NCBI GenBank assembly: GCA_964572155.1 | Contig: CAZNDZ010000002.1 | Location: 83,089 to 147,088, forward strand | Reading direction: 5' to 3' | DNA: 64,000 nucleotides | Source: an uncultured Planctomycetales bacterium | GTDB taxonomy: Bacteria; Omnitrophota; Gorgyraeia; Zapsychrales; Fredricksoniimonadaceae | Shown: in pieces, positions 7,889 through 27,425 of the stretch | Layout: each line of letters begins with the position of its first letter | Numbering within the stretch: position 1 is the stretch's first letter | The notes under the pieces: model-generated | What the model was told of the DNA's origin: nothing | The model's input: the letters and a program-made list of their open reading frames with translations, nothing else | The model's database searches: none | Position numbers and translations under genes: made by a program

Positions 7889-9289
7889 TTAGGAGTTTGT
7901 GGCAAGAACTTCCGCTTTAAGAACATGCGGTGTGGCGTCTGTGATACGGACCTTTAAAAATGAGCCGACTTCATAATCACCCTCAGGAAAAGTGACCAAT
8001 TTTCCACCATCATTACGGCCAACTTTATCACGCAGACTGCGAGGATTTGTTGGGTTTTCAACCAAAATGGTATGCACTTCACCAATGTGTGCTTTATTTT
8101 TCTTTAAAGTAATTTCCTTTTGAATCTCATTTAAACGCATGATGCGTTCTGTTTTCTTCGCCTCTGTTACATCATCCGGAAATTTCTTCGAAGCAATAGT
8201 CCCTTTTCGTTCGGAATACTTAAACATAAACGCCACATCAAACTCCACCTCTTTGATAACCTTAATGGTGTCTTCAAACTCATCGTCAGTTTCCGTCGGA
8301 AAACCAACAATGATATCGGTGCTTAAGATAACGCCTGGGATACGATCGCGCATTTTTTGAGCTAGACTCAAAAATTCTTCTTTTGTATATGTTCGATTCA
8401 TCACATCTAATATGCGGTTGTTGCCTGCTTGCAATGGCATATGCATTTGTTTACAAATCTTGGGATTGTCACGCATGAGCGCAATAAATTTATCTGGAAA
8501 ATCTTTAGGGTGTGGCGACGTAAAACGAATGCGTTCGATCCCTTTAACACGACTTACCGCATCCATCAAATCCGCAAAATCACCTTCTTCATGACGATAG
8601 GAATTTACATTTTGGCCAAGCAAGGTCACTTGTTTAAACCCTTGAGCCGCGAGCCCTTCAACTTCTTCAATGACATTTGAGATGGACCGACTGCGTTCTC
8701 GCCCACGCGTATACGGCACCACGCAAAACGTACAAAAATTATTACACCCACGCATAACCGCAATCCATGCATTTATCCCATCTTTACGACTAGGCGTCAC
8801 ATCCGAATACGTCTCAAATTCTGACAAGGTCACATCATAAGGCTTCTCACCTTCACCCACAGCCTCCCGAATCAAATCCGGCAACCGCTTATAACTATCC
8901 GGCCCCGCAATAAAATCAATCTTCAAACTACGATCCTCAAAAATCTCCTGCCGCAAATTAGTAGCCATACATCCCAAAATACCAATAAGCACCGGCTTAT
9001 CCCCTCGATCATGCCGTAAATTATGCACCCGCCCATAAACCTTCTGATGCGCCTTCTCCCGAATAGCACACGTATTAAGCATCACAATATCCGCATCCTG
9101 TTCCTTAGACACGAATTCGTAGTTTTCTTTACGCAAAATAGAACGTACGAGCTCTGAATCATACTCGTTCATTTGGCATCCATAGGTCTCCAAAAGCACG
9201 CGCTTTCCAATTGAGGAAGATTGCGGTTTTTGTTCTGGATTTCCGACTGTGTTGCCGTTGTTTGTGGTCTTTTGTTGCTGTTCTTCCAT
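7889..9289 (-). CDS. miaB: tRNA-i6A37 methylthiotransferase MiaB (radical SAM)
   Basis: UPF0004 N-domain TYGCQMNEYDSE, radical-SAM CNNFCTFC and a TRAM C-terminus. The first 30 aa (Q/N/T-rich) overlap the recombinase ORF in another frame. An alternative GTG start at 9199 would give MLLETYGCQM. Confidence 0.85.
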   Translation of the reverse strand: MEEQQQKTTNNGNTVGNPEQKPQSSSIGKRVLLETYGCQMNEYDSELVRSILRKENYEFVSKEQDADIVMLNTCAIREKAHQKVYGRVHNLRHDRGDKPVLIGILGCMATNLRQEIFEDRSLKIDFIAGPDSYKRLPDLIREAVGEGEKPYDVTLSEFETYSDVTPSRKDGINAWIAVMRGCNNFCTFCVVPYTRGRERSRSISNVIEEVEGLAAQGFKQVTLLGQNVNSYRHEEGDFADLMDAVSRVKGIERIRFTSPHPKDFPDKFIALMRDNPKICKQMHMPLQAGNNRILDVMNRTYTKEEFLSLAQKMRDRIPGVILSTDIIVGFPTETDDEFEDTIKVIKEVEFDVAFMFKYSERKGTIASKKFPDDVTEAKKTERIMRLNEIQKEITLKKNKAHIGEVHTILVENPTNPRSLRDKVGRNDGGKLVTFPEGDYEVGSFLKVRITDATPHVLKAEVLATNS

Positions 9290-10920
9290 TTTAGCCCTTC
9301 ATCGTAGCTAGTCTGCCACGGTTCATTTAATTCAACATTAACAATACGCTGATCCTGAATGTAAACCGCCTTAAACACAATCCGCATAAAGGTTTTAATT
9401 AAAAAACTTGTTCCTCCGAAGCCATCATCCGCTATTTCATGGTTTGGCGAAGGAGAATCAGCTTGCTCATTATCCTGAAATTTTCGTAAATGTAAAAGAA
9501 AATCCTCGGTGGCTCGGTTTAAATTAATGGCGTTTCTTTTGTCTAAAATCCTAAGCTGAACACCTTTAATATCCTGCCTTAACTTCTTCTCCTCATTACG
9601 CAAAAGCTCGGCGCGGTCTTTGTAAATCTCCAGATTAATGCTGTCCTGCGTAAAAACTTCAAACAAACCTTTTTGCTTCTCAAGGTTTTTATTAAGAGCC
9701 TTTGTCAATACTTCCAGCTCATCTAAGAACACCTGCTCCGGCTGGGAGGCATTAAGCTTAACCATGTCGCCTAATTCTTCAAGGACATGCAAGTTTTGGC
9801 ATACCACATCAATAATATCCCAGACCTGTACGCTTATCACATCCGCTGACACGCTTGGATTATGGCACGTTAAATACGAAACCCCTTTGGATGAACAGCG
9901 ATACCACGGGCGCTTGACCTTGGTGCGGTGATTGGTAATCGACATGATGCCACGAAAATTACCACCACACTCCTTGCATTTTAGCACACCGGACAAGTGG
10001 TAATTATTGTTCTTAAATTTCACCACCGCATTCTTGCGATTGCGTTTAAGCAAGACCGCGGCTTCATCGAATTGTTTCTGGCTGATGATAGGCTCATGGA
10101 CATTGGGCACTTCAACAATTTTAGAAGTATCATTGGCGATATATTTATAGCCATTACCTTGACCATCTTTTGTTTTTGCTCTTGGATCATAACGATGGCG
10201 GTTCCAAACCAACATCCCTAAATACACCTTGCTCTTTAGAATGGTGCCAATAAATTTCGTGTAGAATCGCCCGCCCTGACGGGATGATGTTCCTAGACGA
10301 TAAAAATGACCGGCAATTTGCGAGGTGCTTTGGCCGTTGATATAACGCTCAAAAATTTCTCTAACAATCTTGGCTTCCTCCTCATAAACCTCCAGCTTCT
10401 TAATGTCTTTATTGTAGCGATAGCCATATGGTGCATAACGCGCCCCCTGCCAATGGCCTTTCTTAACACCCACCAGCATCCCGGGAAAGACACGCTCAAC
10501 CAAACGATTGCGTTCAAACTCCGCGCAAGAGCCCAGCATTTGAATGGCCATCTTGCCAGCACTGGATGTTGTATCAAAAGGTTCAGTCGCTGATTTATAA
10601 CCAACCCCTAAATTATCCAATTCCTCAAGCAAACCCAGAAGGTCTTTGAGCCGACGGCTTAAACGATCTTGTTTATACACCATCACCAAATCAAACTGTT
10701 TATTGCGAGCATCGAACAACAACCTCTGCAAAGCAGGCCTGTCCATATTCCCTCCAGAAAAGCCGTCATCCATGTAAATATCCTTACCCGGCAAGGTGCA
10801 AACAATTGTCCAGCCAAGATTCTGGGCATATTGCACCAAAAACGTGCGTTGCACCTCGAGTGAAAAACCTTCGCGGGCTTGGTCTTCTGTACTGACTCTG
10901 GTATATAAAGCGACTCTCAT
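9169..10920 (-). mobile_element. Large serine recombinase (resolvase/invertase N-domain + recombinase domain + Zn-ribbon/coiled-coil); island integrase
   Basis: MRVALYTRVSTEDQ catalytic Ser motif (start chosen at the internal Met). Recombinase domain and CxxC...C zinc ribbon (CKECGGNF...C) are present. The C-terminal ~90-aa tail may be non-coding read-through into miaB. Confidence 0.85.
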
Positions 10921-10955
10921 GTTCATTTGGCGGGAGTATACCTTGCATTCCCGCA

Positions 10956-11201
10956 TTATTCAAAGCCTTCTTGAGCTTTCTTGGCTAAAAACATTCTAGT
11001 TAATATTTCAATACCATCATCAAACGACTTTCGCGCCTGAGCGATTTCCCCCTGAGACAAACCTTTAGCCTTGAGCTTTATTTCTAAAGCATCCCAGCCA
11101 CGGGGTTTTGATATTGCGTCATTATTTATAATTGAGTCACTATTCATAACAATAAGAAGGTGTGCGGAGGAAGACACAAGGAGGGATCTTCTGTTATGCA
11201 C
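10956..11201 (-). CDS. Small hypothetical protein, possible HTH/excisionase-like regulator
   Basis: Sits immediately upstream of and abutting the recombinase gene. The segment GLSQGEIAQARKSF resembles an HTH turn. Function not supported further. Confidence 0.35.
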   Translation of the reverse strand: MHNRRSLLVSSSAHLLIVMNSDSIINNDAISKPRGWDALEIKLKAKGLSQGEIAQARKSFDDGIEILTRMFLAKKAQEGFE

Positions 11202-11266
11202 CTTTTACCATAACAAAGCCTCAAGATAGGATGGAGACTATCTCAAAGCTCCTCCGCATATCTTGA

Positions 11267-11941
11267 TTAAACCGATTCTTGAAGAACAACGCCCATCTTG
11301 GCACGTTGCCTTTCAAGAAGCCGACTAACTTCATCATCGATCTTTAAACTATTCGTCCAACCGGAATAATTCTGAGCCTGCTGGTATTTGGAATAGTACG
11401 TTGGCTCTTTGACAGATGATTTTATTTTTTCTACTTCTTCCTTCATAATCTGATCAGTTCGGGAATCATCATCGAAAACGCTACTATCTTTTAATCGACT
11501 AATAACACCTGATCCCCACAATTGTTCAGCAATAACTAATACCTTTGCTTTTGCTCGAGCCAATTCTTCCATGAGCCGATCACGCTCTGGTTCTATGGCT
11601 TTCATTTTCTGCCCCGCAACTGTGTTGCCATTTTCAATAATGGCTTCATACGTTTTGCGCAATTTTTCCCCTAAATTGCCAATGCTCTCGGTAACCGCCT
11701 CAAGATCAAGACTTGCGTTTTCAAGCTTGCGGTCTACCTCATTGATTTGATCTTCCGAAACGACCTCCCCGCACAGCTTTTTCTGACGCAATTCCTTTGC
11801 CTGCTGACGTAAGGTATTCAATTGCTTCTCGTACTCCATTTGCTTAAGCTCCAGCCCCACGATTTGCTCGGCGATTTCTTCCGGTGTGTTGTTTTGATTG
11901 TTTAAAACCTTTAAAAAGTTAAGCTTCATATAGCCCTCCAT
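11267..11941 (-). CDS. Coiled-coil hypothetical protein (224 aa)
   Basis: Intact ORF with heptad-rich E/K/Q sequence. No recognisable domain. Confidence 0.5.
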   Translation of the reverse strand: MEGYMKLNFLKVLNNQNNTPEEIAEQIVGLELKQMEYEKQLNTLRQQAKELRQKKLCGEVVSEDQINEVDRKLENASLDLEAVTESIGNLGEKLRKTYEAIIENGNTVAGQKMKAIEPERDRLMEELARAKAKVLVIAEQLWGSGVISRLKDSSVFDDDSRTDQIMKEEVEKIKSSVKEPTYYSKYQQAQNYSGWTNSLKIDDEVSRLLERQRAKMGVVLQESV

Positions 11942-12223
11942 TTTTTGAGCAAGTTTTAAAAATTATGTCACTAAAAACATCAATTTGACCCTCTATAACC
12001 TCCCCAACTGACAGCCCGAATACTCCTATTTATCGACGATAGACCTCCTTTCTTAACCCTTATGCCAAATTCCCACCAAAACTTAAATTGAGTGACATTG
12101 ACATCGATTTTTTGAACCTGTATCACTGACAACCTGCGCCTCGCCCGACCCGCATCCGGCACCCCACCCGGAAGGACCCAAAACCTCCACAAAGCGCAAC
12201 TCAACTACATTTCTTAAACCGTC

Positions 12224-12322
12224 ACACTTCAATAGCTAAAGCGTCCAGCGCCTTTCTTGATCCTCGACACTTCAAATCTTGAAGCGTCCACACAGGACAA
12301 ACTTTAAACCGACGCTTCAAAT
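12224..12322. repeat. Iteron-like direct repeats: two units ACACTTCAA-N6-AAGCGTCCA (12224-12247 and 12267-12290) plus a hybrid third copy GACGCTTCAAAT (12311-12322)
   Basis: Read directly from the sequence. Half-sites occur in both orientations, and CTTCAA-atc-TTGAAG is itself palindromic. The repeats lie in a 410-bp non-coding gap beside the HTH_36 gene. Confidence 0.45.
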
Positions 12323-12351
12323 ACTGAACTCTTATATAGCTTCTACCATGC

Positions 12352-12690
12352 CTATACATAACGAATGGTGTCATGCTTACCCGTTAACTTATAAAGGCAG
12401 TAATACCGATACAACCCGCCATGCTTTGTCTTTTCAACCCATTCCTTACTGATCAATCCTTTAAGAGACTTTGAAAGTGTGGCGGGCGAAAAAATTTTTT
12501 TAAGTTCGGCATACTTCAATGAGATCTGGCCATTGTTACGACCATTGAAATTCTTCTTAATGTAAATGTAGGTGAGCATCTCGGCATGTGACAGCCTTTG
12601 CCATTGCTCGCTTTCCATCATGGAACGCTCAAGCATTACAAAGGGCGGATAACGATGTTTTTTATTCCTGCTAGACATGCCTTTCTCCAC
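12352..12690 (-). CDS. Winged-helix DNA-binding protein, HTH_36-like (phage replication-organiser N-terminal type)
   Basis: Pattern LSHAEMLTYIYIKKNFNGRNNGQISLKYAELKKIFSPATLSKSLKGLISKEWVEKTKHGGLYRYY matches the HTH_36 architecture (helix, NG-rich turn, SxxTLAxxxG, LIxR....G..Y.Y). Confidence 0.5.
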   Translation of the reverse strand: MEKGMSSRNKKHRYPPFVMLERSMMESEQWQRLSHAEMLTYIYIKKNFNGRNNGQISLKYAELKKIFSPATLSKSLKGLISKEWVEKTKHGGLYRYYCLYKLTGKHDTIRYV

Positions 12691-12701
12691 ATTTTAAAGA
12701 C

Positions 12702-12989
12702 CTACGAAACCTTGCCCGCCAACTCTAAATACCTGGCAACCACAGCCCGTTTAATAGATTCCCCCGCATCCCTGCTGATTGGATGAACACAGCTAATCCT
12801 TTTACCATTAGGAAGCACTTTGTCCGGGTAAACCAAACGGAAACCATCCTCCGTTGTAAAAGAAGAATAAACAGCGATGTTGCCTATATAGATTTGATTG
12901 TTGATGACAAAAGAAGCGAAAGCAACAAGCCCATTTTGCGGCTTAACTGGCAGGATATTGATTTCATTAATGTCGAGCGTATTCATCAC
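12702..12989 (-). CDS. SpoVG-like nucleic-acid-binding protein
   Basis: 95 aa, alignable by eye to B. subtilis SpoVG. Shared blocks are I/V-x-V-x-x-x-G-x-x-A-x-AS-x-x-x-x-x-x-x-x-I-x-x-I-x-V, then G-F-x-x-x-P, then HPI-x(4)-R-x-x-I-x-x-AV-x-x-Y-x-x-L. Confidence 0.6.
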   Translation of the reverse strand: MMNTLDINEINILPVKPQNGLVAFASFVINNQIYIGNIAVYSSFTTEDGFRLVYPDKVLPNGKRISCVHPISRDAGESIKRAVVARYLELAGKVS

Positions 12990-13079
12990 TTCGTCCCCTG
13001 AAAATAAAAAATCCCATAACTTTTGGTTACAGGATCAATATAAAACATCAGGTGATGAAGTCACGTACAAATAGACCAC

Positions 13080-13772
13080 CTAGGCTATTTGTTTGAAGCC
13101 ACCCTCGATTAATTCAATGCTGTTTTCTAAATCCCTTTTGGCACGTCTACGCGCATAATGCATGCCATGTGATGAAATATAATGTTTATAAAATTTCTTT
13201 GCCAAATCATCCAAACCCACACCTTCTACGTACTGATCATACACATTCAAATAATGCTTAAACTGCCGGGGAAGCACTCTCGGCGTTACCTTTTGCTTTG
13301 GAAATGTCTTTTCAATTTCCTTCAACCTTTTCTGCCATCGATCCACCATTAAACTGAACTCATCACAAATCTTTTGCTTGGCCAAGCTCATGTTGACCCT
13401 GATCTCAAGAAACCTGCCATTGGTAAAAACATCCCTGTCATTAAGCAAATCCGGATTATCAAAGCAATCAATGGCATTCGCCTCAACCAATAGAGCATCA
13501 ATATAAAGAGTTTTTGTTTTTCGGTCACTCTCAATAAGCTCTTCAAATGACATCGATGGCGGGATAGGGTTTAATAAACCCCATTTGGATAAAATCTTTA
13601 AGGCTTTGTCTTTTTGTGATTCAGGATGAGAATTCTTAATAAGATCAACGATGCGGAGTTTTCGTACGATAAAAATATAATCGTCCATATATTGGACATT
13701 TCGCCTGAGAAATTCCCAGCGATACTTTAAGCAATTTTTCTCACGCTTTGTCAGTAAACCAACTCGCAACAC
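13080..13772 (-). CDS. Hypothetical protein (230 aa)
   Basis: Intact ORF. The N-terminal LTKREKNCLKYRWEFL may be an HTH-like segment. No assignable domain. Confidence 0.45.
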   Translation of the reverse strand: MLRVGLLTKREKNCLKYRWEFLRRNVQYMDDYIFIVRKLRIVDLIKNSHPESQKDKALKILSKWGLLNPIPPSMSFEELIESDRKTKTLYIDALLVEANAIDCFDNPDLLNDRDVFTNGRFLEIRVNMSLAKQKICDEFSLMVDRWQKRLKEIEKTFPKQKVTPRVLPRQFKHYLNVYDQYVEGVGLDDLAKKFYKHYISSHGMHYARRRAKRDLENSIELIEGGFKQIA

Positions 13773-13825
13773 ACCACAATTTCTCCCACATTATCAACAA
13801 TGAATGAAACAACTATAATTGTAAG

Positions 13826-16800
13826 CTATAGAATACTCACAAATTCAGCTACAACACGAAAATCATCACCAGAAACGTTTTCGATCACAATATCTTTAAA
13901 ATCTTTATTATCCGGCGATAGAATGATCCGCTTGTGCCTCCACTGATCATCACCTAAATCTTCCTTCTCGCTGTGATAACGTTTAATGGTATAACTCTTC
14001 TGAGTTTCGGGGTCTTTAACTAATCGAGATTCCACAAGAAAAATACCAATACGTGAACCTCCGCGATCAAAACGGAACAAGCACCAGCTGCCGTCTTTAA
14101 TGGTAGGTTCCATTGATTTTCCAAATACCTGCGCGATGAACATATGCTCACCAATCTTACGCCCATGCATCGGCTTCCACCCGATAATTTCTTGCGTTAA
14201 CTGTTCTCCAAAGTCTGTCGCTACTGCCTGCAAGTCATAAACGGGAAGATACCCCTGTTCAATTGTCGCATCGGGAATCACATCCTTAAAAAACAACGGC
14301 TTATCATCCTCAACCTTTTGAAGGCGTCCATAAACACGCTTTAATAAATAATCTTTTACAACCGCACTAAAGGCTTTATCACCTGTGATCTTATTGAAAA
14401 TATCTTGATTCTGATCCATCCGCTCAACTAACTTATCCATAAACACATCATCAAATCCGTATTTGAAATTATCAATAGAATTGCTCTGGGCTTGCATGCC
14501 AAGGCGCTCATCTAAGACCATTTCCTCCTCAATTTGATCAAAGAAAAGCTTATCTGCTTCCGTAAAATCTGTTCCGAATCGATCATTAAGAAGATTAATT
14601 ATTTCAGATAATTTTGCGTATTCGTCCTTATCCTTCTTCGTGCCCGCCTCAGACAATGGCTTGATTGCCGCTCCTGAATCCTTTTCTAAAGCAATCTTGC
14701 CCTCTGCAACTTTCTGCAAACGGTAATACTGAATAGCAACCTCATCACCCAAATTGTATCTTGGCCCACGATTTGGCCCCGGTAATTTCTTTAAAAGCAA
14801 ACGGCCATAGGCATAAAACTTTTCTAAATCAACATCTTGAAACGGCATAATTTGCGCTAAGAATGCATAAAGCCTGACAAAAACTCCAAGCGTATTAATA
14901 AAATCGTCTTTGTGTTCATCCTTATCAATTGTTTCAAAACGTGTCACTGCCACATCAATTAACGCATTTAACTGGGCATGTTCCTGTTTATTGTGCTGTT
15001 CTTTATTCTTAAAGAATACGGTACAAAATGCATCCACATCTGATGGATAAATGATTTTAAATGAATCAATCTTAGTCTTTAAATCGTAGAGCTTATTGGG
15101 ATCTGTTGTCTCTGTTAATTGCGTTTGTTCATAATATGGTTGGAATGCCGCTAAAATATCCTCCCGGCTATTTACAAAATCTAACACGAAGGTATCTTCC
15201 TTACCCGGACAAGTACGATTCAAACGGCTTAATGTTTGTACAGCCTTAACACCATCAATACGTTTATCTACATACATCGTATGCAACAACGGCTCGTCAT
15301 ATCCTGTCTGATACTTCTCAGCTACTAAAAGAATTTGATACTCTGAAGAAGAAAACTTCTCCGGCAATTCTTTCTCACCAAAACCATTCATCTTGGGCTC
15401 TGTGTATTCAGGCGGTACACCATCCAATAAAACAGTTCCAGAGAAAGCCACCAAAGCCTTGATATCCCGATAACCTTTTTCTTTTAAATAACGATCAAAC
15501 TCTTGCTTATAGCGAACCACGTGCTCACGGGAAGCTGTGACAACCATGGCCTTGGCTTTACCGCCAATCAACTTCATGGTTACCTGCCTAAAGTGCTCGA
15601 TGATAACCTCTGTTTTCTGGGCTAATACATACGGATGCATTGTTGCAAATCTAGCAATAGCGGCCGCGGCTTTCTGCTTATTTAGCTGAGGATCATCTTC
15701 GATCTTTTTGTTTAACTGGTAAAAAGACTGGTAGGTGGTGTAGTTGTCTAATACGTCCAAGATAAAACCCTCTTCAATGGCTTGTCGCATAGAATACAAA
15801 TGAAATGGCACCGGCTTCCCATCCGTACCCTTTTGACCAAAAGTCTCAAGTGTCTTAGCCTTAGGTGTTGCCGTAAAAGCAAAGAAGCTTAAATTCGGCT
15901 GAGGCCCTCTGGCACGCATGACCTCACGCAAACCATCTTCAATATCATCTTCATCGCTGATCAATAAAACCCTTTTCAAATCAGCGGCAGATTCTCCCCC
16001 TTGCGAACTATGTGCTTCATCGACAATAACCGCATAATTACGCTTAGCTAACTTCCCAACTTTCTCAATAACAAAGGGAAACTTCTGTAATGTGGTGATA
16101 ATAATATTTGTGCCGTTGGTCAACGCATTGGCCAACTGCTCAGAATTCTGGTCAATCTTTTCAACCACCCCGCTTCTATGCTCAAACTGATAAATAGTCT
16201 CTTGCAATTGCTGATCAAGCACTAGCCTGTCCGTCACCACAATCACCGTATCGAATATGCGCTTATCCTCTTGATCATGGATCCCCGCCAAACGGTAAGC
16301 AAGCCATGCAATTGAATTACTCTTGCCGCTTCCAGCGCTGTGTTGAATTAAATAATTTCTTCCGGCACCATTAGCCTTGGCATCAACAGCTAATTTCCTC
16401 ACCACATCAAGCTGATGATAACGAGGAAAGATCATGGTCTCTTTACGGACAGTACGATTATCCATGCGGATTTCTTTTGTTTCTAAATGCATGAACCGAC
16501 CCAAGATATCCATCAGACTGTCTTTAATTAAAACCTCTTCCCAAAGATACGCTGTCTTATGCCCACTTGACGGAGGATTTCCTTTGCCCTTGTTATGCCC
16601 TTTATTAAACGGTAAATAATACGTTCGGTTTCCTTGAATACGGGTAGTCATATAAACCTCATCCGTATCAACAGCAAAATGAACCAAAGCACGCTTTTTA
16701 AATTGGAATAACAAATCCCTCTCATCACGGTCATATTTATACTGTCGTTTGGCATTTTCCACATTCTGCCCCGTGAATTGATTCTTAAGCTCTAATGTCA

Positions 16801-17248
16801 CCACCGGCAGACCATTAACCAAAAGGACAATATCAACTGAACGCTCATCTTTTTCACAAAAGTGAACCTGACGGGTAACATTAAGAATATTTTGGTCGTA
16901 TAATTTCTGAGTTGTAGGATTAAGCCCGCTGACAGGCTTAAAGTAGGCAAGGGAGAACTTCTTGCCGTAGTCAGTAATTCCATAACGAAGACAGTCCAGC
17001 ATACCGCGCGTTTCCAACTCCTGATTCAGCCGATAAAGAAACTTCTTCTCTACCTCCGCACCATGAATACCAGCCAAAGCATCCCAAGCATCTTTTTGTG
17101 TCGTTTTAATAAATTTGAATAGCTCCTCTTTATCAATGCACATAAGACGATCGAAATTAGCTGAATCTCCTTTTATGTAACCACCACGGTCGATCAGACT
17201 TTGCTCGATTGCTTCTTCAAATGCTTTTTCATTTGTTATTGATGACAT
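13826..17248 (-). CDS. hsdR: Type I restriction enzyme R subunit HsdR with C-terminal LexA/UmuD-like S24 peptidase domain
   Basis: Motifs: N-terminal nuclease region NGLPVVTLELKN, SF2 helicase motif I GSGKS, DEAH box VIVDEAHSSQG and motif VI QTLSRLNR. The C-terminal ~150 aa carry the S24 signature YLPVYDLQAVATDFGE...GKSMEPTIKDGSWCLF...YTIKRY (Ser/Lys dyad positions conserved). Confidence 0.85.
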   Translation of the reverse strand: MSSITNEKAFEEAIEQSLIDRGGYIKGDSANFDRLMCIDKEELFKFIKTTQKDAWDALAGIHGAEVEKKFLYRLNQELETRGMLDCLRYGITDYGKKFSLAYFKPVSGLNPTTQKLYDQNILNVTRQVHFCEKDERSVDIVLLVNGLPVVTLELKNQFTGQNVENAKRQYKYDRDERDLLFQFKKRALVHFAVDTDEVYMTTRIQGNRTYYLPFNKGHNKGKGNPPSSGHKTAYLWEEVLIKDSLMDILGRFMHLETKEIRMDNRTVRKETMIFPRYHQLDVVRKLAVDAKANGAGRNYLIQHSAGSGKSNSIAWLAYRLAGIHDQEDKRIFDTVIVVTDRLVLDQQLQETIYQFEHRSGVVEKIDQNSEQLANALTNGTNIIITTLQKFPFVIEKVGKLAKRNYAVIVDEAHSSQGGESAADLKRVLLISDEDDIEDGLREVMRARGPQPNLSFFAFTATPKAKTLETFGQKGTDGKPVPFHLYSMRQAIEEGFILDVLDNYTTYQSFYQLNKKIEDDPQLNKQKAAAAIARFATMHPYVLAQKTEVIIEHFRQVTMKLIGGKAKAMVVTASREHVVRYKQEFDRYLKEKGYRDIKALVAFSGTVLLDGVPPEYTEPKMNGFGEKELPEKFSSSEYQILLVAEKYQTGYDEPLLHTMYVDKRIDGVKAVQTLSRLNRTCPGKEDTFVLDFVNSREDILAAFQPYYEQTQLTETTDPNKLYDLKTKIDSFKIIYPSDVDAFCTVFFKNKEQHNKQEHAQLNALIDVAVTRFETIDKDEHKDDFINTLGVFVRLYAFLAQIMPFQDVDLEKFYAYGRLLLKKLPGPNRGPRYNLGDEVAIQYYRLQKVAEGKIALEKDSGAAIKPLSEAGTKKDKDEYAKLSEIINLLNDRFGTDFTEADKLFFDQIEEEMVLDERLGMQAQSNSIDNFKYGFDDVFMDKLVERMDQNQDIFNKITGDKAFSAVVKDYLLKRVYGRLQKVEDDKPLFFKDVIPDATIEQGYLPVYDLQAVATDFGEQLTQEIIGWKPMHGRKIGEHMFIAQVFGKSMEPTIKDGSWCLFRFDRGGSRIGIFLVESRLVKDPETQKSYTIKRYHSEKEDLGDDQWRHKRIILSPDNKDFKDIVIENVSGDDFRVVAEFVSIL

Positions 17249-17257
17249 ATATACCTA

Positions 17258-17989
17258 TCACTGAGATGCGTTCATAATTTCGTTTGAACTTAAATCAAAT
17301 CCTTCTTCTTGCAATCTTTTACAAAGCTTAGGAATTATCTCTCGAATATGAGTGTTATATCCATATCTAATGATGCCTTCCAAATCAGATGGCAACTCTA
17401 AGTGCCCCTTGACTATAATTGCCATGCGATTTCTTGTCAAAGAAGACAACAACATTCCTGTCTCAAGAATTACATTCTGTCGGGTTCGTGGTTCAGCTTT
17501 ATCAGCGCCGTCCTTAAGCGCATATCCTACGTCATCAGGCGTCATTAAAACAATTCCAAAATCTGATGAATAATCCTTCCCAATTCTACCTTCTAAAGCT
17601 TCAATAATAGTTTTACCTCCGCCACTACTATTCATCAAAATAAACGGTTCCAAATTTAACCGATGCAACGCAAGTTCCAACTGATCTCTTGCTTCAACAT
17701 CATGACCATGCACAATAAAAATCTGTTTCTTAGAAGAGCCGCCTTGTGACGTTCCATTCCCAGCAAACAAATCATGCATCCTCTTTTTTGCATCATCATT
17801 TCCTTGAAACTGTATCGTCTTGTTTGATGACCACCAATGAAGGATCCCTCCATCTTTGGCGCGGAATGAATACTTATCTCCTGATTGAGTCCAGGATCCT
17901 TCAATAGTCATAAAGATTGACTTTAATTGATCAATACTACCGTTATATTTATCAGCCATTAACAATCTCCTTTTCAAAACGAACATCAA
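17258..17989 (-). CDS. TIR-like domain protein (Cap12/PycTIR-type, COG4271-like) with ~80-aa N-terminal domain of unknown function
   Basis: KQIFIVHGHDVEARDQLELALHRLNLEPFIL...GKTIIEALEG...DFGIVLMTPDDVG...RTRQNVILETGML...RMAIIVKG...ELPSDLEGIIRYGY matches the conserved blocks of the CBASS/Pycsar-effector TIR-like family. It lies between hsdS and hsdR and overlaps the hsdS stop. Confidence 0.65.
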   Translation of the reverse strand: MMFVLKRRLLMADKYNGSIDQLKSIFMTIEGSWTQSGDKYSFRAKDGGILHWWSSNKTIQFQGNDDAKKRMHDLFAGNGTSQGGSSKKQIFIVHGHDVEARDQLELALHRLNLEPFILMNSSGGGKTIIEALEGRIGKDYSSDFGIVLMTPDDVGYALKDGADKAEPRTRQNVILETGMLLSSLTRNRMAIIVKGHLELPSDLEGIIRYGYNTHIREIIPKLCKRLQEEGFDLSSNEIMNASQ

Positions 17990-19301
17990 TCTTTCCCGTC
18001 ACTGCTTCTGAAATTAACGCAGTGCGGTATTCGTTCAACAGCTCGATAGACCTCTGTTCTAGAACAATCTGCGCATCGATCTGAACAGTTTTTTTATCTA
18101 AAAAAGATGCTATAGCTTCTTGTTCTTTTTTGGGTGGAATTAAACATATAGAATTGCTTAAAGCATAATTGCTCAATCCATATCTTGTAACGCCAGACGC
18201 TTCAATTCTAAACTGATAATTAATACAATCTGCAGACAAGACCCAGAACAGATATTTTCCTTGGATCAATTGTTCTTTGGGGCGCACTTGAGCCAGATGA
18301 TAGCCACATATTAAATTTGGCTCTTCAAAGGACACATACGCAGGAATAGCAATATCGCTCCATTCTTCAGAATCTTTAGTTAGCAAAACATCCCCCACCT
18401 TTAAATGAAACTTTACAATTTCATCTGCTGAAGCTGTAGCATCCATAAAATCTAAATCTGGCGTAATTAAATCGTTATAATAAACATCAACGTAATTACA
18501 AAGTCTTACAGCTATCTCGCCTTCTTCGGATTTCTTGTTAACATTGCTAAACTGAACCTGTGCATTAAATTTCAACTTCTTAATCTCCCAATGCTTCGGA
18601 ACCTTACCTAACCATTCAATACCAGAATCTTTCATCTCAGCTTTGGGATCAATCCCTTTGGTCACTGTTTGATTAATTACTGCCGCACGCTCCTCTTTAA
18701 GAAGCTTAATCATCTGCTCCTTTTTGGTAATCAGGTCGTCAATCTGTGCAGTATTATGATCAAGAAATGCGGAAATACATCTTTGTTCACTTATATCATC
18801 CGGATACCAAATCGCTATATCTGCCAAATCTGAAGAATTAATTGCCGGATAGCTCACACCAACCGATAAGGCGCATATTCGATCAATGATCTTCTCGCTA
18901 CGTAAAATATAATAAATAAATTTTGGTTCAAGCTTTGATCCAGGAGTCACCACAGCAAAACCGGTTGAGACGATAAAATCATTCACGTCCTCTTCGAAAT
19001 GAGCAATGGCTTTTAAATAAGTTCTGACTGTGGAAACAATTGAATCACCTTTTCTTACAATTCTTCTAGCTCGAGAAGGCGCGTTTAGAAAATTAACTTT
19101 CTCCGTAATGCTATAACCCTTCTCAAGATCAACATTTCCTATGTCAATATAGTTAAACTCGTAGCTTCCATCAGTTTCCTCGCCCAAAGCAAGTTGATTG
19201 ACGCGTGAAACATATTTAATCTTTTTTATCTTCCAAATTTCAGGAATATTCCCAATCCATTTAATCCCTGAATCTTTATATGCTGGATAATACTTAAACA
19301 T
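17952..19301 (-). CDS. hsdS: Type I R-M specificity subunit HsdS (two target-recognition domains)
   Basis: 449 aa with duplicated TRD architecture and conserved HsdS repeat regions (e.g. the conserved spacer helix LLKEERAAVINQTVTKGIDP). Confidence 0.8.
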   Translation of the reverse strand: MFKYYPAYKDSGIKWIGNIPEIWKIKKIKYVSRVNQLALGEETDGSYEFNYIDIGNVDLEKGYSITEKVNFLNAPSRARRIVRKGDSIVSTVRTYLKAIAHFEEDVNDFIVSTGFAVVTPGSKLEPKFIYYILRSEKIIDRICALSVGVSYPAINSSDLADIAIWYPDDISEQRCISAFLDHNTAQIDDLITKKEQMIKLLKEERAAVINQTVTKGIDPKAEMKDSGIEWLGKVPKHWEIKKLKFNAQVQFSNVNKKSEEGEIAVRLCNYVDVYYNDLITPDLDFMDATASADEIVKFHLKVGDVLLTKDSEEWSDIAIPAYVSFEEPNLICGYHLAQVRPKEQLIQGKYLFWVLSADCINYQFRIEASGVTRYGLSNYALSNSICLIPPKKEQEAIASFLDKKTVQIDAQIVLEQRSIELLNEYRTALISEAVTGKIDVRFEKEIVNG

Positions 19302-20235
19302 AAGCTAGTCCCAGATCAGATGTATCCTTCTTAAATGGCTTTTGCTGATGAATCAAAACATGCCCATTTTCTAATGGAATTTTAATCTTCCTTAGCTCAA
19401 CGCGCCAATCCTGATATTCCTTAACAATATTCTCGACCCCAGCATGTTCATTAAAAATAACCTTATCTTCAGCAGACTGAACCATCAATCGGTTAAGCAT
19501 TTCAACGCCTTGCGGTTTTATTGCTCCCACACTGTCACTTTGGCGCGGCTCTGTGTCATGTAAAGGATGAATAATTATTGCTAAACGTGGAGTTATGGGG
19601 CAATACAAATCACATTGATTAGCGTTCCAATATTGCAAACAAACTGGATTATCGCTAGTCAAAAATTGAACAGGTGTTTCATTCTTAAATACAATCCATG
19701 GCGATGTAGCTAGGAGATTTTGAACGCCAATCAAAGCATTAATCCCCAATGCCTGTGGAAATGCTTGCTTGATGAGAGCCTTGGTTCCTCCATGCTTACG
19801 AATTGTTTCTATTGCTTCACGATGCTTTGAATTAGGATCTGATAATTCTTTCTCTTCCAATTTATCATACAAATGCTGAACAATATGCGAAAGGCCACCA
19901 ACACCCAACCTCACAGCCGTTGGAGTGCAGGCTCTTAGATAAGCAAGGTACCCAGCTATTAAATGCTTTGTTGTTGCGTCATATATATTCGTAGAAATGC
20001 TATTAACACAATCAGTCCATTTAGGTTCGACGATCTTAAGAAAATCCTCAACAGCTCTTGGATTATCTGGAAAATATTCGTTTGAACTCCAGTCCACTTC
20101 ATAACAGATTGACTTTATTGGAATAGCATTTTGTCGACTTAAGTTGCTTTTTCGAAAAACATTAATAAAATCAGGGTTGCTAGTCAGTCCAAATCCCCTC
20201 AAATATGTTTGAGCGACATAATGATCTTTAGCCAT
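19294..20235 (-). CDS. DUF4238 family protein
   Basis: N-terminal HYVAQTYLRGF matches the DUF4238 signature (HYVPQFYLxxF). The gene sits between hsdM and hsdS. Confidence 0.6.
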   Translation of the reverse strand: MAKDHYVAQTYLRGFGLTSNPDFINVFRKSNLSRQNAIPIKSICYEVDWSSNEYFPDNPRAVEDFLKIVEPKWTDCVNSISTNIYDATTKHLIAGYLAYLRACTPTAVRLGVGGLSHIVQHLYDKLEEKELSDPNSKHREAIETIRKHGGTKALIKQAFPQALGINALIGVQNLLATSPWIVFKNETPVQFLTSDNPVCLQYWNANQCDLYCPITPRLAIIIHPLHDTEPRQSDSVGAIKPQGVEMLNRLMVQSAEDKVIFNEHAGVENIVKEYQDWRVELRKIKIPLENGHVLIHQQKPFKKDTSDLGLAYV

Positions 20236-20833
20236 TTAGAACCTCTGAATTCATCTTCCCGATCCAAGCATGTAACGCGTGTTTTATTTCGTCGGTAGTC
20301 ATACCTTTCATTCGAAATATTTCTTCAATTATATCCTCTGCAACAGTCAAGGTTTCAACCGCCACAGTTTTATCTAATTTCTCATAAGCCGAAATATCTG
20401 GCATGCCTTGAATTTGAATACCAGGTAAATTAATGGTCTGATGGGTGCTTTTAAAATGCATAAGCTTGTTCCTTAAATTCTTTAATTTCATAAACCGCTG
20501 ACCTACCCCCTCACTAAGATCAATCTCCTTATCAAAAAACCTCTTCGGCCATGTTTTAATTTTGCGGTCTAGACTCATATTTTCATCAAGATCTTTAATC
20601 GTTTGATCGCTACAACTTGAGCAGTGAGCCTCTCCAGCCAAAACCCTGAAATACATGTTAAAAAATGTTTCAACAATAGCTACGCTCATAAACACGCAGG
20701 GCAATACTTTTCGTTGAAGATTTGTATCGTCTCGCTCGACCTGAACTTCTTGCACCATTTCGCGCAAGCATCCAAAGTATTCCCAAATCATTTTATTCGG
20801 CGAACCAAAATGTGAATTAGCTGCATTATTCAC
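20228..20833 (-). CDS. Hypothetical protein, candidate HEPN-domain (RNxxxH motif)
   Basis: 201 aa, mostly helical by composition. KNLRNKLMHF contains an R-N-x3-H HEPN-type motif. The assignment is inferential. Confidence 0.4.
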   Translation of the reverse strand: MNNAANSHFGSPNKMIWEYFGCLREMVQEVQVERDDTNLQRKVLPCVFMSVAIVETFFNMYFRVLAGEAHCSSCSDQTIKDLDENMSLDRKIKTWPKRFFDKEIDLSEGVGQRFMKLKNLRNKLMHFKSTHQTINLPGIQIQGMPDISAYEKLDKTVAVETLTVAEDIIEEIFRMKGMTTDEIKHALHAWIGKMNSEVLNG

Positions 20834-22835
20834 CTAAAACTTCTCCCAATAGCCCTTCAGTTTCTTTTTCTAAAGCCAAAATATCTTTGCGTATCTCATC
20901 AAGACTACGTAATGGCTTATATTTATAGAATTCCTTCGTGAAATTGATTTCATACCCGATCTTGTCCTTGCTCCTATCCATCCACGCATCAGGCACATGA
21001 GGCATGACCTCACGCTTAAAATACTCGTCAATATTATCGGACAGCGGAACATTCTCCGCGTCGCGCAATTCCGCATCAGCTTCTGGCTTGCCTTCTTTAT
21101 CCAGACAAATCTCCGCTGTCTCATCCCTCTGGGAAAGAACCTCAAGGATGGATTTCATAACAGGCGCTTTGATCTTCAATCCAGCCTTATCAATGGCCGC
21201 ATCTATGATTGCTATAAATTTTTCTCGGTTATTATAGGTCTTGGCGCTATCCAATCCATTGAGCATTGCTTTAATCGCCTTCTGTAAAGCTTCGCCCTCC
21301 TCAATTTCCTTAATACCTTCCTTGCCCTTCTTCTTGGATTTGGCAAGATTAACAAATCCTGACTGCTGATCCAATAAGGCTATTCTTTCTGGGGATACCT
21401 GAAAACTCAATCGAAGCGGCCGCTCGACTGTCACACGGGTATAACCAAAATATTCATTGGGGAATATCTTGCAATGCTCTCCAGCTTTAAATTGTCCATA
21501 TATCTTTGTGATTGTCCCGATATGATCCTCGGCTATTTCATTACGTTTATTACCGAGGCTTCTGGCCATCTTCTTAAAGAAACCAACCCCATTGATAAGC
21601 TGAATCTTTCCTTTTCGATCTTTAGCTTTACGATTAGTAACAATCCAAATATAAGTTGAAATGCCTGTGTTATAAAAAAGCTGATCCGGCAAAGCAACAA
21701 TTGCCTCTAACATATCATTCTCAATAATCCACCTACGTATCTCACTCTCTCCGCTACCAGCTCCACCAGAAAACAAAGGCGAACCATTAAAAACAATCCC
21801 TAAACGAGCACCACCATTTTCCGGACGCATTTTGGAAATCATGTGTTGAAGAAACAAGAATGATCCATCGCTTATGCGTGGCAATCCAGCACCAAAACGC
21901 CCGGCGTTTCCTAACGTTTCATGCTCCTTCAGAATTTCACCCTCTATCTTCTTCCACTCAACACCAAAGGGAGGGTTGGAAAGCATGTAATCAAACTTCT
22001 CGTCCTTGAGCCCGTCTTGAGTAAAGGAATTACCAAACTTAATTTGATCTGGATTCTGTCCCTTAATAAGCATGTCGGAATTGCATATCGCATATGACTC
22101 TGGGTTAAGCTCTTGTCCAAAAACACGAAGGCTTGCATCAGGATTTAATTCACGCAAATATTCCTCTGCAATGGACAACATCCCACCCGTTCCGCAAGCC
22201 GGATCATAAAGCGTCTTCACAATTCCCTTTTTGGTTAATACTTCCTTGTCATTTAAGAAAAGAATATTAACCATCAGACGAATAACTTCACGCGGGGTAA
22301 AATGCTCCCCTGCCGTTTCATTGGAAAGGTCAGCAAACTTACGGATCAACTCCTCGAAAATGTAACCCATTTCAATATTGGGGACGACTTCAGGATGGAG
22401 ATCAACTTCAGCAAACCGTTTTATGATTAAGAAAAGGAGGTCGGATTTATCAAGCCGTTCAATATGATCTTCAAAATTGAAATGATCAAGAATATCCCTG
22501 GCATTTTTAGAAAAACCAGCAATGTAATTGCGGAGATTAGCGGCAATATCGCTTGGGTCAGCAACAAGCTTCTGGAAGTCAAACTTGCTTTTGTTGTAAA
22601 ATGTTAGTTTTGCCTTCTTTTTTAGAACTGTTTCAATTGCTTCAGGCGATAACCCTTTGGTCTGCGGTAAATATTCCAAGACAGTTAATTTTGTTGGCTC
22701 TAATACGCAATCCAAACGGCGCAACACCGTGAGTGGTAAAATTACCTTCCCATATTCAGATTGTTTATAGTCTCCACGAAGCAAATCCGCGATGCCCCAT
22801 ATAAAATTTGCACGGTCTTTAAAATTATTAGCCAC
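20826..22835 (-). CDS. hsdM: Type I R-M N6-adenine DNA methyltransferase HsdM (long form, 669 aa)
   Basis: HsdM N-terminal domain, AdoMet motif I (DPACGTGG) and catalytic motif NPPFG (LSNPPFGVEW). C-terminal extension present. Confidence 0.9.
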   Translation of the reverse strand: MANNFKDRANFIWGIADLLRGDYKQSEYGKVILPLTVLRRLDCVLEPTKLTVLEYLPQTKGLSPEAIETVLKKKAKLTFYNKSKFDFQKLVADPSDIAANLRNYIAGFSKNARDILDHFNFEDHIERLDKSDLLFLIIKRFAEVDLHPEVVPNIEMGYIFEELIRKFADLSNETAGEHFTPREVIRLMVNILFLNDKEVLTKKGIVKTLYDPACGTGGMLSIAEEYLRELNPDASLRVFGQELNPESYAICNSDMLIKGQNPDQIKFGNSFTQDGLKDEKFDYMLSNPPFGVEWKKIEGEILKEHETLGNAGRFGAGLPRISDGSFLFLQHMISKMRPENGGARLGIVFNGSPLFSGGAGSGESEIRRWIIENDMLEAIVALPDQLFYNTGISTYIWIVTNRKAKDRKGKIQLINGVGFFKKMARSLGNKRNEIAEDHIGTITKIYGQFKAGEHCKIFPNEYFGYTRVTVERPLRLSFQVSPERIALLDQQSGFVNLAKSKKKGKEGIKEIEEGEALQKAIKAMLNGLDSAKTYNNREKFIAIIDAAIDKAGLKIKAPVMKSILEVLSQRDETAEICLDKEGKPEADAELRDAENVPLSDNIDEYFKREVMPHVPDAWMDRSKDKIGYEINFTKEFYKYKPLRSLDEIRKDILALEKETEGLLGEVLGE

Positions 22836-22852
22836 TTATCACTCCCATTCTT

Positions 22853-23536
22853 TTAATCTTCACAAGGCGGATACTGCATCGGCGCTTCCCCAATGCTCTC
22901 CAATACTTTCGGCTTTAAATCCCCTTTGGTGTTGTTGCAAATCTCTAAAAGCTCCACATTAAACTGCCAGCCATCGCCGTAATCAAAAAGCATGATCAAC
23001 TTCTCACCTACGGTATCAAAGGCCTGTGAAATCTTGGTCTTTTTTACACCCTTGGCGCCTGGCCTGCCCTCTTCACCGATATCAACAAAAAGCTCAAAGG
23101 CCTTTCGGCAATTTCGATGATCCTTTAATTGGTCATAGAACCCAAAGCAATGATCAAACTCAAAATCAAATGCCTGCGTTATGACCTTGGCAAAATTATA
23201 AAGTGTTTTGGTTGGGACGATCTGGATCTTGCGAATAATCCTTTTCTCCTTCGTGCAATGTTCATCGCCGTAAAGCCAGACATTGAAAATATAAAGACCG
23301 GACTCGGTCGCCTTAGCTTTCTTCTTTGGAGCCGGAGCCAGATCATCGATAACCCGGGCCACCTTGTGACCGCAGGTACCGCAGAACCCTTGAAGAACCA
23401 CGACCCCGTTCAGTTCCGCGTGATAATCAACAATGGTCACCGACTTTCGGCACTCCCCGCACCAAACGTTACTCAAAAGCATACGCCGGATGTCCAAAGG
23501 AACAGTCTGCCATAGTTTTAATGCTTCATCTGCCAT
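22853..23536 (-). CDS. pRiA4b ORF-3-like protein with N-terminal CxxC...CxxC zinc ribbon
   Basis: LFDYGDGWQFNVELLEI matches the hallmark DxGDxWEH-type motif of the plasmid pRiA4b ORF-3 family. Zinc ribbon is CGEC...CGTC. The gene lies 17 bp upstream of hsdM on the same strand. Confidence 0.5.
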   Translation of the reverse strand: MADEALKLWQTVPLDIRRMLLSNVWCGECRKSVTIVDYHAELNGVVVLQGFCGTCGHKVARVIDDLAPAPKKKAKATESGLYIFNVWLYGDEHCTKEKRIIRKIQIVPTKTLYNFAKVITQAFDFEFDHCFGFYDQLKDHRNCRKAFELFVDIGEEGRPGAKGVKKTKISQAFDTVGEKLIMLFDYGDGWQFNVELLEICNNTKGDLKPKVLESIGEAPMQYPPCED

Positions 23537-23554
23537 CTTAATCCTTTGACCATT

Positions 23555-23570
23555 TCGCTCATGTGAGCGA
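23555..23570. promoter_or_regulatory. Perfect 16-bp palindrome TCGCTCA-TG-TGAGCGA between phosphoesterase and pRiA4b-like genes
   Basis: Read directly. The 2-nt spacer argues for a protein-binding operator rather than an RNA hairpin. Confidence 0.3.
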
Positions 23571-23596
23571 TATGATAATCAATATTTGGCCAATTC

Positions 23597-24220
23597 TTAT
23601 ACGTCAAGAACTACTGGTTTATTCACCAGCTTATAATCCTCATTCAAAACTGAACAGTTGATATACGTCGTATCCTTGGTTTTCTCAACACCATACCCGC
23701 CATGGATATGACCACAAATGACATAAGGAATCTTTAAACTATCAATTTTCTTGAGCAACGTCTTACTGCCTAAATGATCCCCGCCTGGACGGGCTGTGTC
23801 CTGATGGCCAAAGGCCGGGCCGTGGGTCAAAAGAATGTCTGTTTTCTTTTGAATCTTGCTCCAATGGTACCGATCAAGGTTCTCCTCTGATTCCATGAAT
23901 GCCCAATTCAAGAATATCGGCGTCATGGGTGAACCCCAGATGGTCATGCCATTGGGTAAAACATATGGCTCGTCCTTTAAGTACACCGCTTTCGTTAAAT
24001 AATTCTTAACCTGTTTTGGAAACTGCTCACAATAAAAATCATGGTTACCTGCTATCGCAATAATATGCTCAAATTTAAGACCCAATAACCAATCGTTAAA
24101 ATGAATAACATCCATCACATGACGAAACTCGCCGTCACCCGCGAAAATAAGCACATCACCTTCCGGAAGCTTTACATTGTGATGCTGTGTATGTGTGTCG
24201 GCAAAGGCAACTATTCTCAT
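23597..24220 (-). CDS. Calcineurin-like metallophosphoesterase
   Basis: MPE motifs present: AFADTH, GDGE, GNHD, THGP, GHIHGG. 207 aa. First gene of the co-directional block that continues into hsdM. Confidence 0.8.
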   Translation of the reverse strand: MRIVAFADTHTQHHNVKLPEGDVLIFAGDGEFRHVMDVIHFNDWLLGLKFEHIIAIAGNHDFYCEQFPKQVKNYLTKAVYLKDEPYVLPNGMTIWGSPMTPIFLNWAFMESEENLDRYHWSKIQKKTDILLTHGPAFGHQDTARPGGDHLGSKTLLKKIDSLKIPYVICGHIHGGYGVEKTKDTTYINCSVLNEDYKLVNKPVVLDV

Positions 24221-24342
24221 CTGTGTCCCAATGATCTGGCCAACACACTGTTGGCAAATTACTTACGAGGCACCTCATATAAAATAAAAACCTTAACTGC
24301 TAAATTGCCATATAGTTACATTAAAATCATATAATCATTCTT

Positions 24343-25848: not shown

Positions 25849-25857
25849 GCTTCAAAT

Positions 25858-27412: not shown

Positions 27413-27425
27413 AATGAATGATTCA

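Follow-up and report, generated by a model that had tools for sequence, protein, structure and literature searches.

The window analysed here is a stretch of 64,000 nucleotides (nt) from an uncultured Candidatus Omnitrophota bacterium (GenBank assembly GCA_964572155.1, contig CAZNDZ010000002.1, positions 83,089 to 147,088), in which the 5' end of the miaB gene, encoding a methylthiotransferase, is overlapped by the 3' end of a large serine recombinase (LSR) gene on the same strand. An earlier note on this DNA had taken the overlap for the integration junction of a defence island. The present analysis of the locus and its homologues points to an integrative island that would carry, within its own recombinase gene, a replacement for the start of miaB. 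The features in question are as follows (positions are those of the window).

9169 to 10920, minus strand: LSR gene, with Pfam Resolvase, Recombinase and Zn_ribbon_recom matches, a PHROG integrase match (phrog_95) and all family-invariant residues kept.
7889 to 9289, minus strand: chimeric miaB, 466 aa, with UPF0004, Radical_SAM and TRAM domains and a match to the NCBIfam MiaB equivalog.
9172 to 9306, minus strand: dual-coding stretch, open in both frames.
9147 to 9208, minus strand: LSR-proximal junction P-O-B' (attR by convention), with a central TG at 9178-9177.
26004 to 26064, minus strand: far junction B-O-P' (attL), with a central TG at 26034-26033.
26014 to 26064, minus strand: displaced native miaB 5' end, a mini open reading frame (ORF) of 16 codons (MKKIFLETYG-WPLATV and stop), found by a minus-strand frame search for miaB N-terminal motifs.
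9178 to 26033, minus strand: whole integrative island, 16,856 bp with one TG copy counted, bounded by the two junctions.

The recombinase ORF comprises 595 codons (9169 to 10956, minus strand, open from 10956), with M13 at 10920 as the likely start, in line with the gene coordinates of the earlier note. Pfam searches and alignment recovered the catalytic serine, recombinase domain and zinc ribbon noticed earlier, with matches to Resolvase (PF00239, aa 15-168, E 4e-34), Recombinase (PF07508, aa 192-306) and Zn_ribbon_recom (PF13408, aa 321-380), the nucleophilic S22 in YTRVSTEDQ (aa 18-26), and R20 and the zinc-ribbon residues Cys327, 330, 354 and 364 invariant across the family alignment. The AlphaFold model of the homologue P0067 contains long paired helices (397-483) followed by a beta-hairpin, and this coiled-coil region was alignable in the window LSR. 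The ORF does stay open past the conserved domains, as had been stated, but the unstructured tail amounts to about 40 codons and not about 90, since the homologues remain conserved through the coiled coil, the closing beta-hairpin and on as far as YDEGLKW (aa 551-557). The stop codon TGA (9171-9169) is the A-TGA-AC of M40-N41 in the CQMN motif of miaB, that is, host miaB codons supply the stop of the recombinase, as the earlier note had seen, and the two ORFs overlap in different frames by 121 nt (9169-9289), against an estimate of 120.

This overlap is not due to chance. It is seen again in 20 independent metagenome loci, where the LSR stop lies within the T[YF]GCQMN codons of a downstream methylthiotransferase, and in 101 of the 120 closest homologues. 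In total, about 900 LSR homologues were detectable, nearly all in Candidatus Omnitrophota metagenome-assembled genomes and metagenomes. The tails of the 120 closest comprised 101 that map onto the miaB motif codon for codon, 13 of an attP-type (running into an attachment site of the element, see below) and 6 others. The miaB-motif tail, RSYVxFCxPSDAR and stop (ACFWRPMDAK and stop in the window), was kept down to 42% identity, and its variable residues (K/R, A/V, D/A/G, M/S/T and P/H) correspond to the synonymous sites of T-[YF]-G-C-Q-M-N. This variation is ACN-TWY-GGN-TGY-CAR-ATG-A translated one base out of frame, with K/R derived from CAA/CAG, A/V from TGC/TGT, D/A/G from GGN, M/S/T from the Tyr/Phe codons, and P/H from the Thr codons, and the LSR frame was open to the end in every case. 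The window miaB scored 479 bits against the NCBIfam MiaB equivalog (cut-off 355), and all five targets tested passed this cut-off, including shorter paralogues without TRAM.

The far junction and a second miaB fragment, both of which had been reported as not found, were located by the miaB N-terminal motif search. Positions 26064-26035 read ATG AAA AAA ATA TTT TTA GAA ACC TAC GGC (MKKIFLETYG) and then pass into unrelated sequence (WPLATV and stop), which places the right end of the island at 26033/26034 and its length at 16,856 bp in place of the approximately 19 kb first suggested. On the minus strand, the LSR-proximal junction reads ...GCGTGCTTTTGGAGACCTATGGA-TG-CCAAATGAACGAGTATGA... (with a longer right side, ...GCGTGCTTTTGGAGACCTATGGA-TG-CCAAATGAACGAG...); its left half fits the family P arm consensus ..cgtgTg.tt.T.cg.ACCTTCGGa, and its right half fits the miaB B' arm YCARATGAAYGA. 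The far junction reads ATGAAAAAAATATTTTTAGAAACCTACGGC-TG-GCCATTGGCCACGGTATAGACG..., with a B arm near-identical to the native miaB starts of the relatives L008 and L005 (homologous loci bear L numbers) and a P' arm in agreement with the family P' consensus.CCG.TGG....TATRGAC. Of the imperfect inverted repeat that the earlier note had proposed to look for at both ends, the central dinucleotide is TG, at 9178-9177 and 26034-26033.

Joining the far-left and proximal-right halves gives MKKIFLETYG continued by CQMNEYDSE, the native start as it occurs in the empty-site relatives (L005, MKRVFLETYGCQMNEYD; L008, MKKVFLETYGCQMNEYD), and the reconstructed attB is TTTTTAGAAACCTACGGCTGCCAAATGAACGAGTATG. 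Joining the proximal-left and far-right halves gives attP, ...CTTTTGGAGACCTATGGA-TG-GCCATTGGCCACGGTATAGACG, reconstructed as GTGCTTTTGGAGACCTATGGATGGCCATTGGCCACGGTATAGACG, which forms an imperfect dyad centred on TG (CCTATGGA / CCAATGGC; core CCTATGGA-TG-GCCATTGG). The base before TG belongs to GGC (native) at the far junction and to GGA (element) at the LSR junction, and the junctions differ again directly after TG; the two junction sequences thus restrict the crossover to TG, in the Cys codon of TYG/CQMN. The insertion therefore lies inside the miaB coding sequence, in this Cys codon, and not upstream of the gene. The P and B arms share more identity than is usual for LSR attachment (att) sites because the P arm mimics miaB coding sequence. 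Outside the island, the flanks keep the gene order of relatives, with miaB-nadA-metX downstream and higBA upstream.

Comparison with related loci lacking the insert, a check proposed earlier, revealed empty miaB sites in related species (L005-L009, L011-L013, L016, L020, L047 and L048), and uninterrupted miaB genes of related Omnitrophota species start with MKR/KVFLETYGCQMNEYD. Among 80 miaB loci of GTDB species representatives, 78 had no LSR upstream; the two occupied ones were L010, a relic, and L019, a contig beginning inside the LSR tail. In addition, an intact attP-type site ends the recombinase gene in nine loci (L001, L002, L088, L095, L097, L100, L101, L124 and L180, the last a contig from IMG/VR), giving the family attP consensus ACCTTCGG-N-TG-N-CCGNTGG, plus TATRGAC about 15 nt out on the P' side. 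In L001, the LSR and attP-type core are followed by homologues (68-88% identity) of the far-end cargo of the window island, namely the metallophosphoesterase, HipB/S/T-like and PRiA4-like genes, an order that would be predicted for a circular or otherwise unintegrated copy. Moreover, L087, which is integrated in miaB, and the attP-type L088 share 83% identity as far as the crossover, where they diverge. Such divergence of integrated and attP-type sister elements at the crossover lends indirect support to the LSR catalyzing recombination of attP with attB. The two junctions in the window, the empty sites of related species and the attP-type sister elements uphold the proposal of site-specific LSR insertion at the 5' end of miaB.

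The element also gives miaB new upstream sequence, as had been supposed: codons 1-37 of the chimeric gene are element-derived, the gene is host-derived from Cys38, and the junction is in frame. Within the dual-coding stretch, the LSR frame reads YDEGLKW...ACFWRPMDAK, and the miaB frame comprises a Shine-Dalgarno-like (SD-like) GAAGGG (9300-9295), an ATG (9289-9287), a 30-aa hydrophilic extension and KRVLLETYG. In this frame the P arm encodes [K/R]-x-R-V-L-L-[E/R]-T-[Y/F]-G, in frame with the host CQMN, a peptide closely mimicking the native first beta-strand K-I/V-F-L-E-T-Y-G. In each of the 18 integrated loci analysed, the miaB frame had no stop over the 21-64 codons preceding the CQMN methionine, and in 17 of them an in-frame ATG lay inside this open stretch, 12-39 codons upstream of the methionine and within the last 30-40 codons of the recombinase. 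Most of the 17 ATGs are preceded by a purine (Shine-Dalgarno-like) run such as GAAGAGGGG or GAGGAGG. These start signals are provided by codons conserved in the recombinase itself, those of Y-E-E-G-x-K-W; in more distant family members the ATG comes from another codon pair, and the purine run derived from Y-E-E is kept. The alternative GTG start pointed out earlier is present at 9199-9197. In several lineages neither GTG nor TTG occurs close to the junction, leaving the upstream ATG as the sole candidate start. The RNA around the miaB start was predicted to be unstructured (z = -0.2).

A natural deletion is provided by L010 (9663-10034, a GTDB Omnitrophota representative), in which only the last 123 LSR codons remain, directly before an intact miaB, and the rest of the element is gone. 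The L010 miaB starts within the relic (MDQHNENN...KLRVLLETYGCQMN), and the remnant is exactly the part that gives the new miaB start, suggesting that the retained segment is needed for miaB. The rebuilt miaB may thus be expressed and functional, to which the ATG/SD-like pattern and this relic lend indirect support. Public gene callers start miaB at M40 (427 aa, with an ATGA overlap with the LSR stop), which omits Cys38 of the N-terminal Fe-S cluster motif at this locus (7889-9172 of the window) in the public assemblies L170-L174; this start is probably a systematic mis-annotation at occupied sites.

Considering all of the above, we place at roughly 0.85 the probability that the locus holds a 16,856-bp defence island of a Candidatus Omnitrophota bacterium, inserted by its own LSR at the TG of the miaB Cys codon, with the start of miaB rebuilt. 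In the proposed mechanism, the LSR would insert the island at this TG within the conserved motif T-Y-G/C-Q-M-N, and the attP of the island would sit within the 3' end of the recombinase gene. Once integrated, the LSR ORF would cross P-O-B' and be closed two codons on by a TGA from the host's invariant Met-Asn codons (ATGAAY), and the P-arm DNA, in a frame shifted by one base, would at the same time encode a stand-in MiaB N-terminus, ...KRVLLETYG, joined to the host CQMN. The ATG (9289) and GAAGGG built into the conserved YDEGLKW codons of the LSR would serve as miaB start signals, so that miaB would stay intact yet rely on the DNA of the element to be started. The promoter, ATG and first ten codons of the native gene (MKKIFLETYG) would be stranded at the far junction, facing the hipBST-like genes. 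We infer the current activity of the LSR, the miaB start codon in use, the miaB transcription start site and any function of the two C-terminal forms of the recombinase.

Several observations weigh against this interpretation. Stops occur at 9.1% per codon in the miaB frame across the LSR body and at 4.3% per codon in the third reading frame of the tail; with so low a third-frame rate, the open miaB frame is only mildly improbable at any one locus (about 0.25) and is weaker evidence there than the rate of the LSR body would imply, and the open-frame argument rests on recurrence across diverged lineages. The promoter that the earlier note also ascribed to the element gained no support, as promoter-like sites were no commoner than in shuffled sequence, with one 10/12 site at 9496-9469. 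The genes past the P' arm look chromosomal in L002-4 and L088, and beyond those of L088 comes a LexA-like gene that has a relative among the cargo of the integrated element L176. In L095, an intact miaB lies 6.2 kb downstream of the attP-type LSR, with both genes in the same orientation; an active enzyme should collapse this arrangement, for which a simple integrated/excised scheme offers no explanation. Look-ups of the host flank proteins returned occupied contigs only and no empty site of the same species, the reconstructed native MiaB of the host species was absent from the protein collection, and no circular form of the same species was found, a scan of viral contigs for the window island attP giving none. 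Nor was a second locus with both junctions recovered within the available 10-kb flanks. Finally, all contigs of the host species, from five sequencing runs, were occupied, and every one of them carries in the LSR a 17-aa insertion, SPSPNHEIADDGFGGTS (aa 501-517, 9456-9406, between the coiled coil and the final beta-hairpin), which none of 33 aligned homologues has and which could impair the enzyme.

A scan of viral contigs with a generic attP core yielded 22 hits, none adjoining an LSR, and these were rejected as chance matches. The element at L175 looked small, yet no miaB fragment was detected upstream of it.

The uniform occupancy and the unique insertion also speak for the island as a fixed relic, which arrived by LSR integration and is now immobile, the overlap persisting since miaB needs the 3' end of the LSR; L010 shows that such relics exist. 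This alternative concerns present activity and not origin, and it is possible, if somewhat unlikely, given that the window LSR is a full-length ORF with every family-invariant residue present, the P and P' arms still match the family consensus, including the TATAGAC motif, and the small conserved ORF beside the LSR is intact. LSR elements that disrupt genes are the better-known case, and the island might accordingly inactivate miaB, with excision alone restoring it, as do the LSR elements in comK, sigK or spsM. The M40 start of public gene callers, with its 427-aa product lacking Cys38, and the 30-aa hydrophilic extension, which is atypical for MiaB, would agree with such an insertional switch. 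It is nevertheless improbable, as the P-arm peptide RVLLETYG, which is in frame with CQMN, closely mimics the native KIFLETYG, 17 of 18 loci have no stop in this frame as far back as an ATG, in most of them after an SD-like run, and the decayed L010 keeps just this segment before an otherwise intact miaB. That the conserved C-terminal motif is a feature of the recombinase protein, with the miaB overlap secondary or coincidental, would suit its conservation over about 900 homologues and the LSR frame being always open to the end, but is highly improbable, as tail variation follows the synonymous positions of miaB codons, attP-type tails change exactly after the D/A codon at the crossover, and the AlphaFold tail has a predicted local distance difference test (pLDDT) score below 55.

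Because attP lies inside the recombinase gene, an inserted island that rebuilds miaB would also have a recombinase with two C-termini. The integrated LSR ends in ...RPMD-AK with a host-supplied stop, and that of a free or circular copy would run on into the P' arm to end in ...RPMD-GHWPRYRRMMEEVVGAVAGA and stop (free-form tail ...RPMDGHWPRYRRMMEEVVGAVAGA). The attP-type tails of relatives range from 4 to about 45 residues and share x-[R/D/E]-W-x-x-[Y/W]-[R/G]-x-x-[I/L/M]-[I/L/M]. Their first eight or so codons are the P' half-site, and DNA-level constraint can suffice to explain them. Beyond the half-site, identity by codon position was 0.33/0.48/0.28, which hints at protein-level constraint on hydrophobic residues, although with ten sequences this is only suggestive. 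The tail of an attP-type LSR was modelled by AlphaFold with pLDDT below 55, and no ssrA-like end was found in attP-type tails. A functional isoform switch between the two C-termini is possible.

A bolder extension of the mechanism, rather doubtful when its three parts are taken jointly, is that the placement of attP in the recombinase gene acts as a regulatory device, that YEEGxKW acts as the miaB start, and that miaB dependence holds the element in place. The LSR of the free element would have a 10-45-residue, partly hydrophobic tail (x-R-W-x-x-Y-R/G-x-x-I/L-I/L...), which integration would swap for two residues and a host stop, and the state of the element, integrated or free, would thereby govern the stability or directionality of the LSR. 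The host miaB would have taken over the conserved YEEGxKW codons of the recombinase for its ribosome-binding site and its start codon, and the dependence of miaB on element DNA would amount to an addiction-like hold, explaining relics such as L010.

Genomic islands in the 3' ends of tRNA and tmRNA genes carry a copy of the displaced part, and the gene stays functional. The miaB island likewise carries a copy of the displaced part of its target, but whereas those islands restore the 3' end of an RNA gene, it restores the 5' end of a protein gene, which needs a start codon and a ribosome-binding site. The closest known parallel is found in the islands and prophages of dusA-specific integrases, some with type I restriction-modification (R-M) cargo, which insert in the 5' end of a tRNA-modification gene, replace it with element sequence restoring the first beta-strand and leave the old 5' end at the far junction (Farrugia et al. 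2015, PMC4482086). As in these, the 5' end of a tRNA-modification gene is replaced here by element DNA, with the displaced 5' end at the far junction. Unlike them (tyrosine integrase, 21-bp-type core), the miaB island uses an LSR and a 2-bp crossover and targets miaB in Omnitrophota, and its replacement 5' coding sequence lies inside the recombinase gene in another frame. With a serine recombinase as its enzyme and miaB as its target, it is an analogue of the dusA-specific integrase family and not a member.

Some LSR clades are known to aim at a single conserved site within a coding sequence, and their target genes are described as disrupted (Durrant et al. 2022, PMC10083194). The miaB elements share the architecture of site-specific LSRs (phiC31, Bxb1, A118 and SPbeta), with short att sites around a central dinucleotide and a diverse clade on one conserved site, but in contrast to the described cases, where the target is disrupted or occupied without being restored, miaB is rebuilt. 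In the integration-dependent immunity of the mycobacteriophages BPs and Brujita, attP lies inside the repressor ORF, the integrated and free proteins differ at the C-terminus, and the consequence was demonstrated (PMC4557955). The same holds here for an element ORF with attP inside it and C-termini that differ between integrated and free forms; however, it is the recombinase itself and not a repressor that is split, by a serine and not a tyrosine recombinase, with a functional consequence that we infer, and the system has no repressor from which integration would remove a degradation tag, and no ssrA-like end in attP-type tails. Text searches of the literature gave no report that LSRs target miaB, that Omnitrophota contain LSR elements, or that attP can lie within the gene of an LSR. 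Site-specific integration with restoration of the target gene is an established principle, and the new part is the overlapping coding in an undescribed element family.

These results define, at base resolution, the attB, attP and crossover of a large, previously undescribed group of mobile defence islands, which comprises about 900 recombinase clusters in Omnitrophota, a phylum that has no cultured members for genetics. The islands insert into a stretch that ranks among the best conserved of a near-universal gene, and the recombinases could serve for site-specific integration in many bacteria. One 40-codon stretch is predicted to act as recombinase tail, as replacement MiaB N-terminus with start signals, and as recombinase binding site. 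There are also consequences for annotation, since miaB at occupied sites recurrently starts at M40, with the Fe-S cysteine lost, or receives an odd extension, and the annotated length of the recombinase varies with the state of integration.

The remainder of the island consists of the following genes.

10956 to 11147, minus strand: small conserved ORF, 63 aa from M19, immediately upstream of the LSR gene.
11267 to 13772, minus strand: backbone genes, comprising a 224-aa ORF, a 112-aa winged-helix-like ORF, a SpoVG-like ORF and a 230-aa ORF with weak regulator-domain matches.
13826 to 22835, minus strand: defence cargo, type I R-M genes with TIR, DUF4238 and 201-aa ORFs between them.
13826 to 17248, minus strand: HsdR of the type I R-M system.
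17258 to 17989, minus strand: TIR protein of PADLOC family PDC-S35, within the R-M cluster.
17952 to 19301, minus strand: HsdS of the type I R-M system.
20826 to 22835, minus strand: HsdM of the type I R-M system.
22853 to 25848, minus strand: far-end cargo, with PRiA4_ORF3-like, metallophosphoesterase and Hip-like genes.
23597 to 24220, minus strand: metallophosphoesterase of PADLOC family PDC-S10.
24457 to 25848, minus strand: HipT/HipS/HipB-like genes (HipBST-like module).

Homologues of the small ORF (49-62% identity) occupy the same position in L001, L002-4, L085-88, L096, L122 and L134; it had no Pfam or PHROG match and is a candidate directionality factor. SpoVG-like genes also occur in the related elements L096, L134 and L175, and the elements of relatives carry primase-helicase genes. 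The DUF4238 protein and the 201-aa ORF are embedded among the R-M genes. The reading of the island as a phage was rejected: in agreement with the earlier note, the seven backbone proteins compared with PHROG had no structural match, and neither phage structural nor conjugation domains turned up when the other ORFs, those of 110 aa or more, were scanned with Pfam. With regard to the cargo named earlier, the R-M and hipBST genes do lie inside the island, but the higBA pair (28030-28675), like the other genes at 26.1-28.7 kb, is host DNA outside it. It is resident and not cargo, because in the empty-site relative L006 the same higB/higA-like pair (68-73% identity) lies directly upstream of miaB.

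Some further features of the family and the locus were observed. The loci L086 (3043-4160) and L096 (11671-12750) have short MiaB-like targets of about 360-370 aa with CQMNVRDSE and without TRAM, which pass the MiaB equivalog cut-off. In L095 (9481-18696), the attP-type recombinase gene is followed by the gene of a 1865-aa Ig-like surface protein and then by the intact native miaB, all in the same orientation. A peptide, DSRFRGND, recurs in the variable tail linker of the homologues P0001, P0020 and P0024 and in L010 (about 9870-9900), and looks like a translated short interspersed repeat that leaves the LSR frame unbroken and, in L010, the miaB frame as well. Within the cargo, HsdR (13826-17248) has a C-terminal match to S24 (LexA-like) peptidase (aa 1031-1135) just under the Pfam cut-off, a fusion that is unusual in a restriction subunit. 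At 25934-25945, the interval from the far junction to the hipB-like gene holds a perfect 12-bp palindrome, ACCCTATAGGGT, possibly the HipB operator, towards which the stranded native miaB promoter would read. In the host DNA, a 193-aa ORF (26999-27580) shares about 150 nt, on the same strand, with the gene of a treble-clef zinc-finger protein that has a lysine-rich tail (27426-27932), and the upstream part of that ORF may not be real. Moreover, the host genes at 32737-33222 and 35293-35865 encode a SET-domain protein and a homologue of TMEM175-type potassium channels, both more familiar from eukaryotes.

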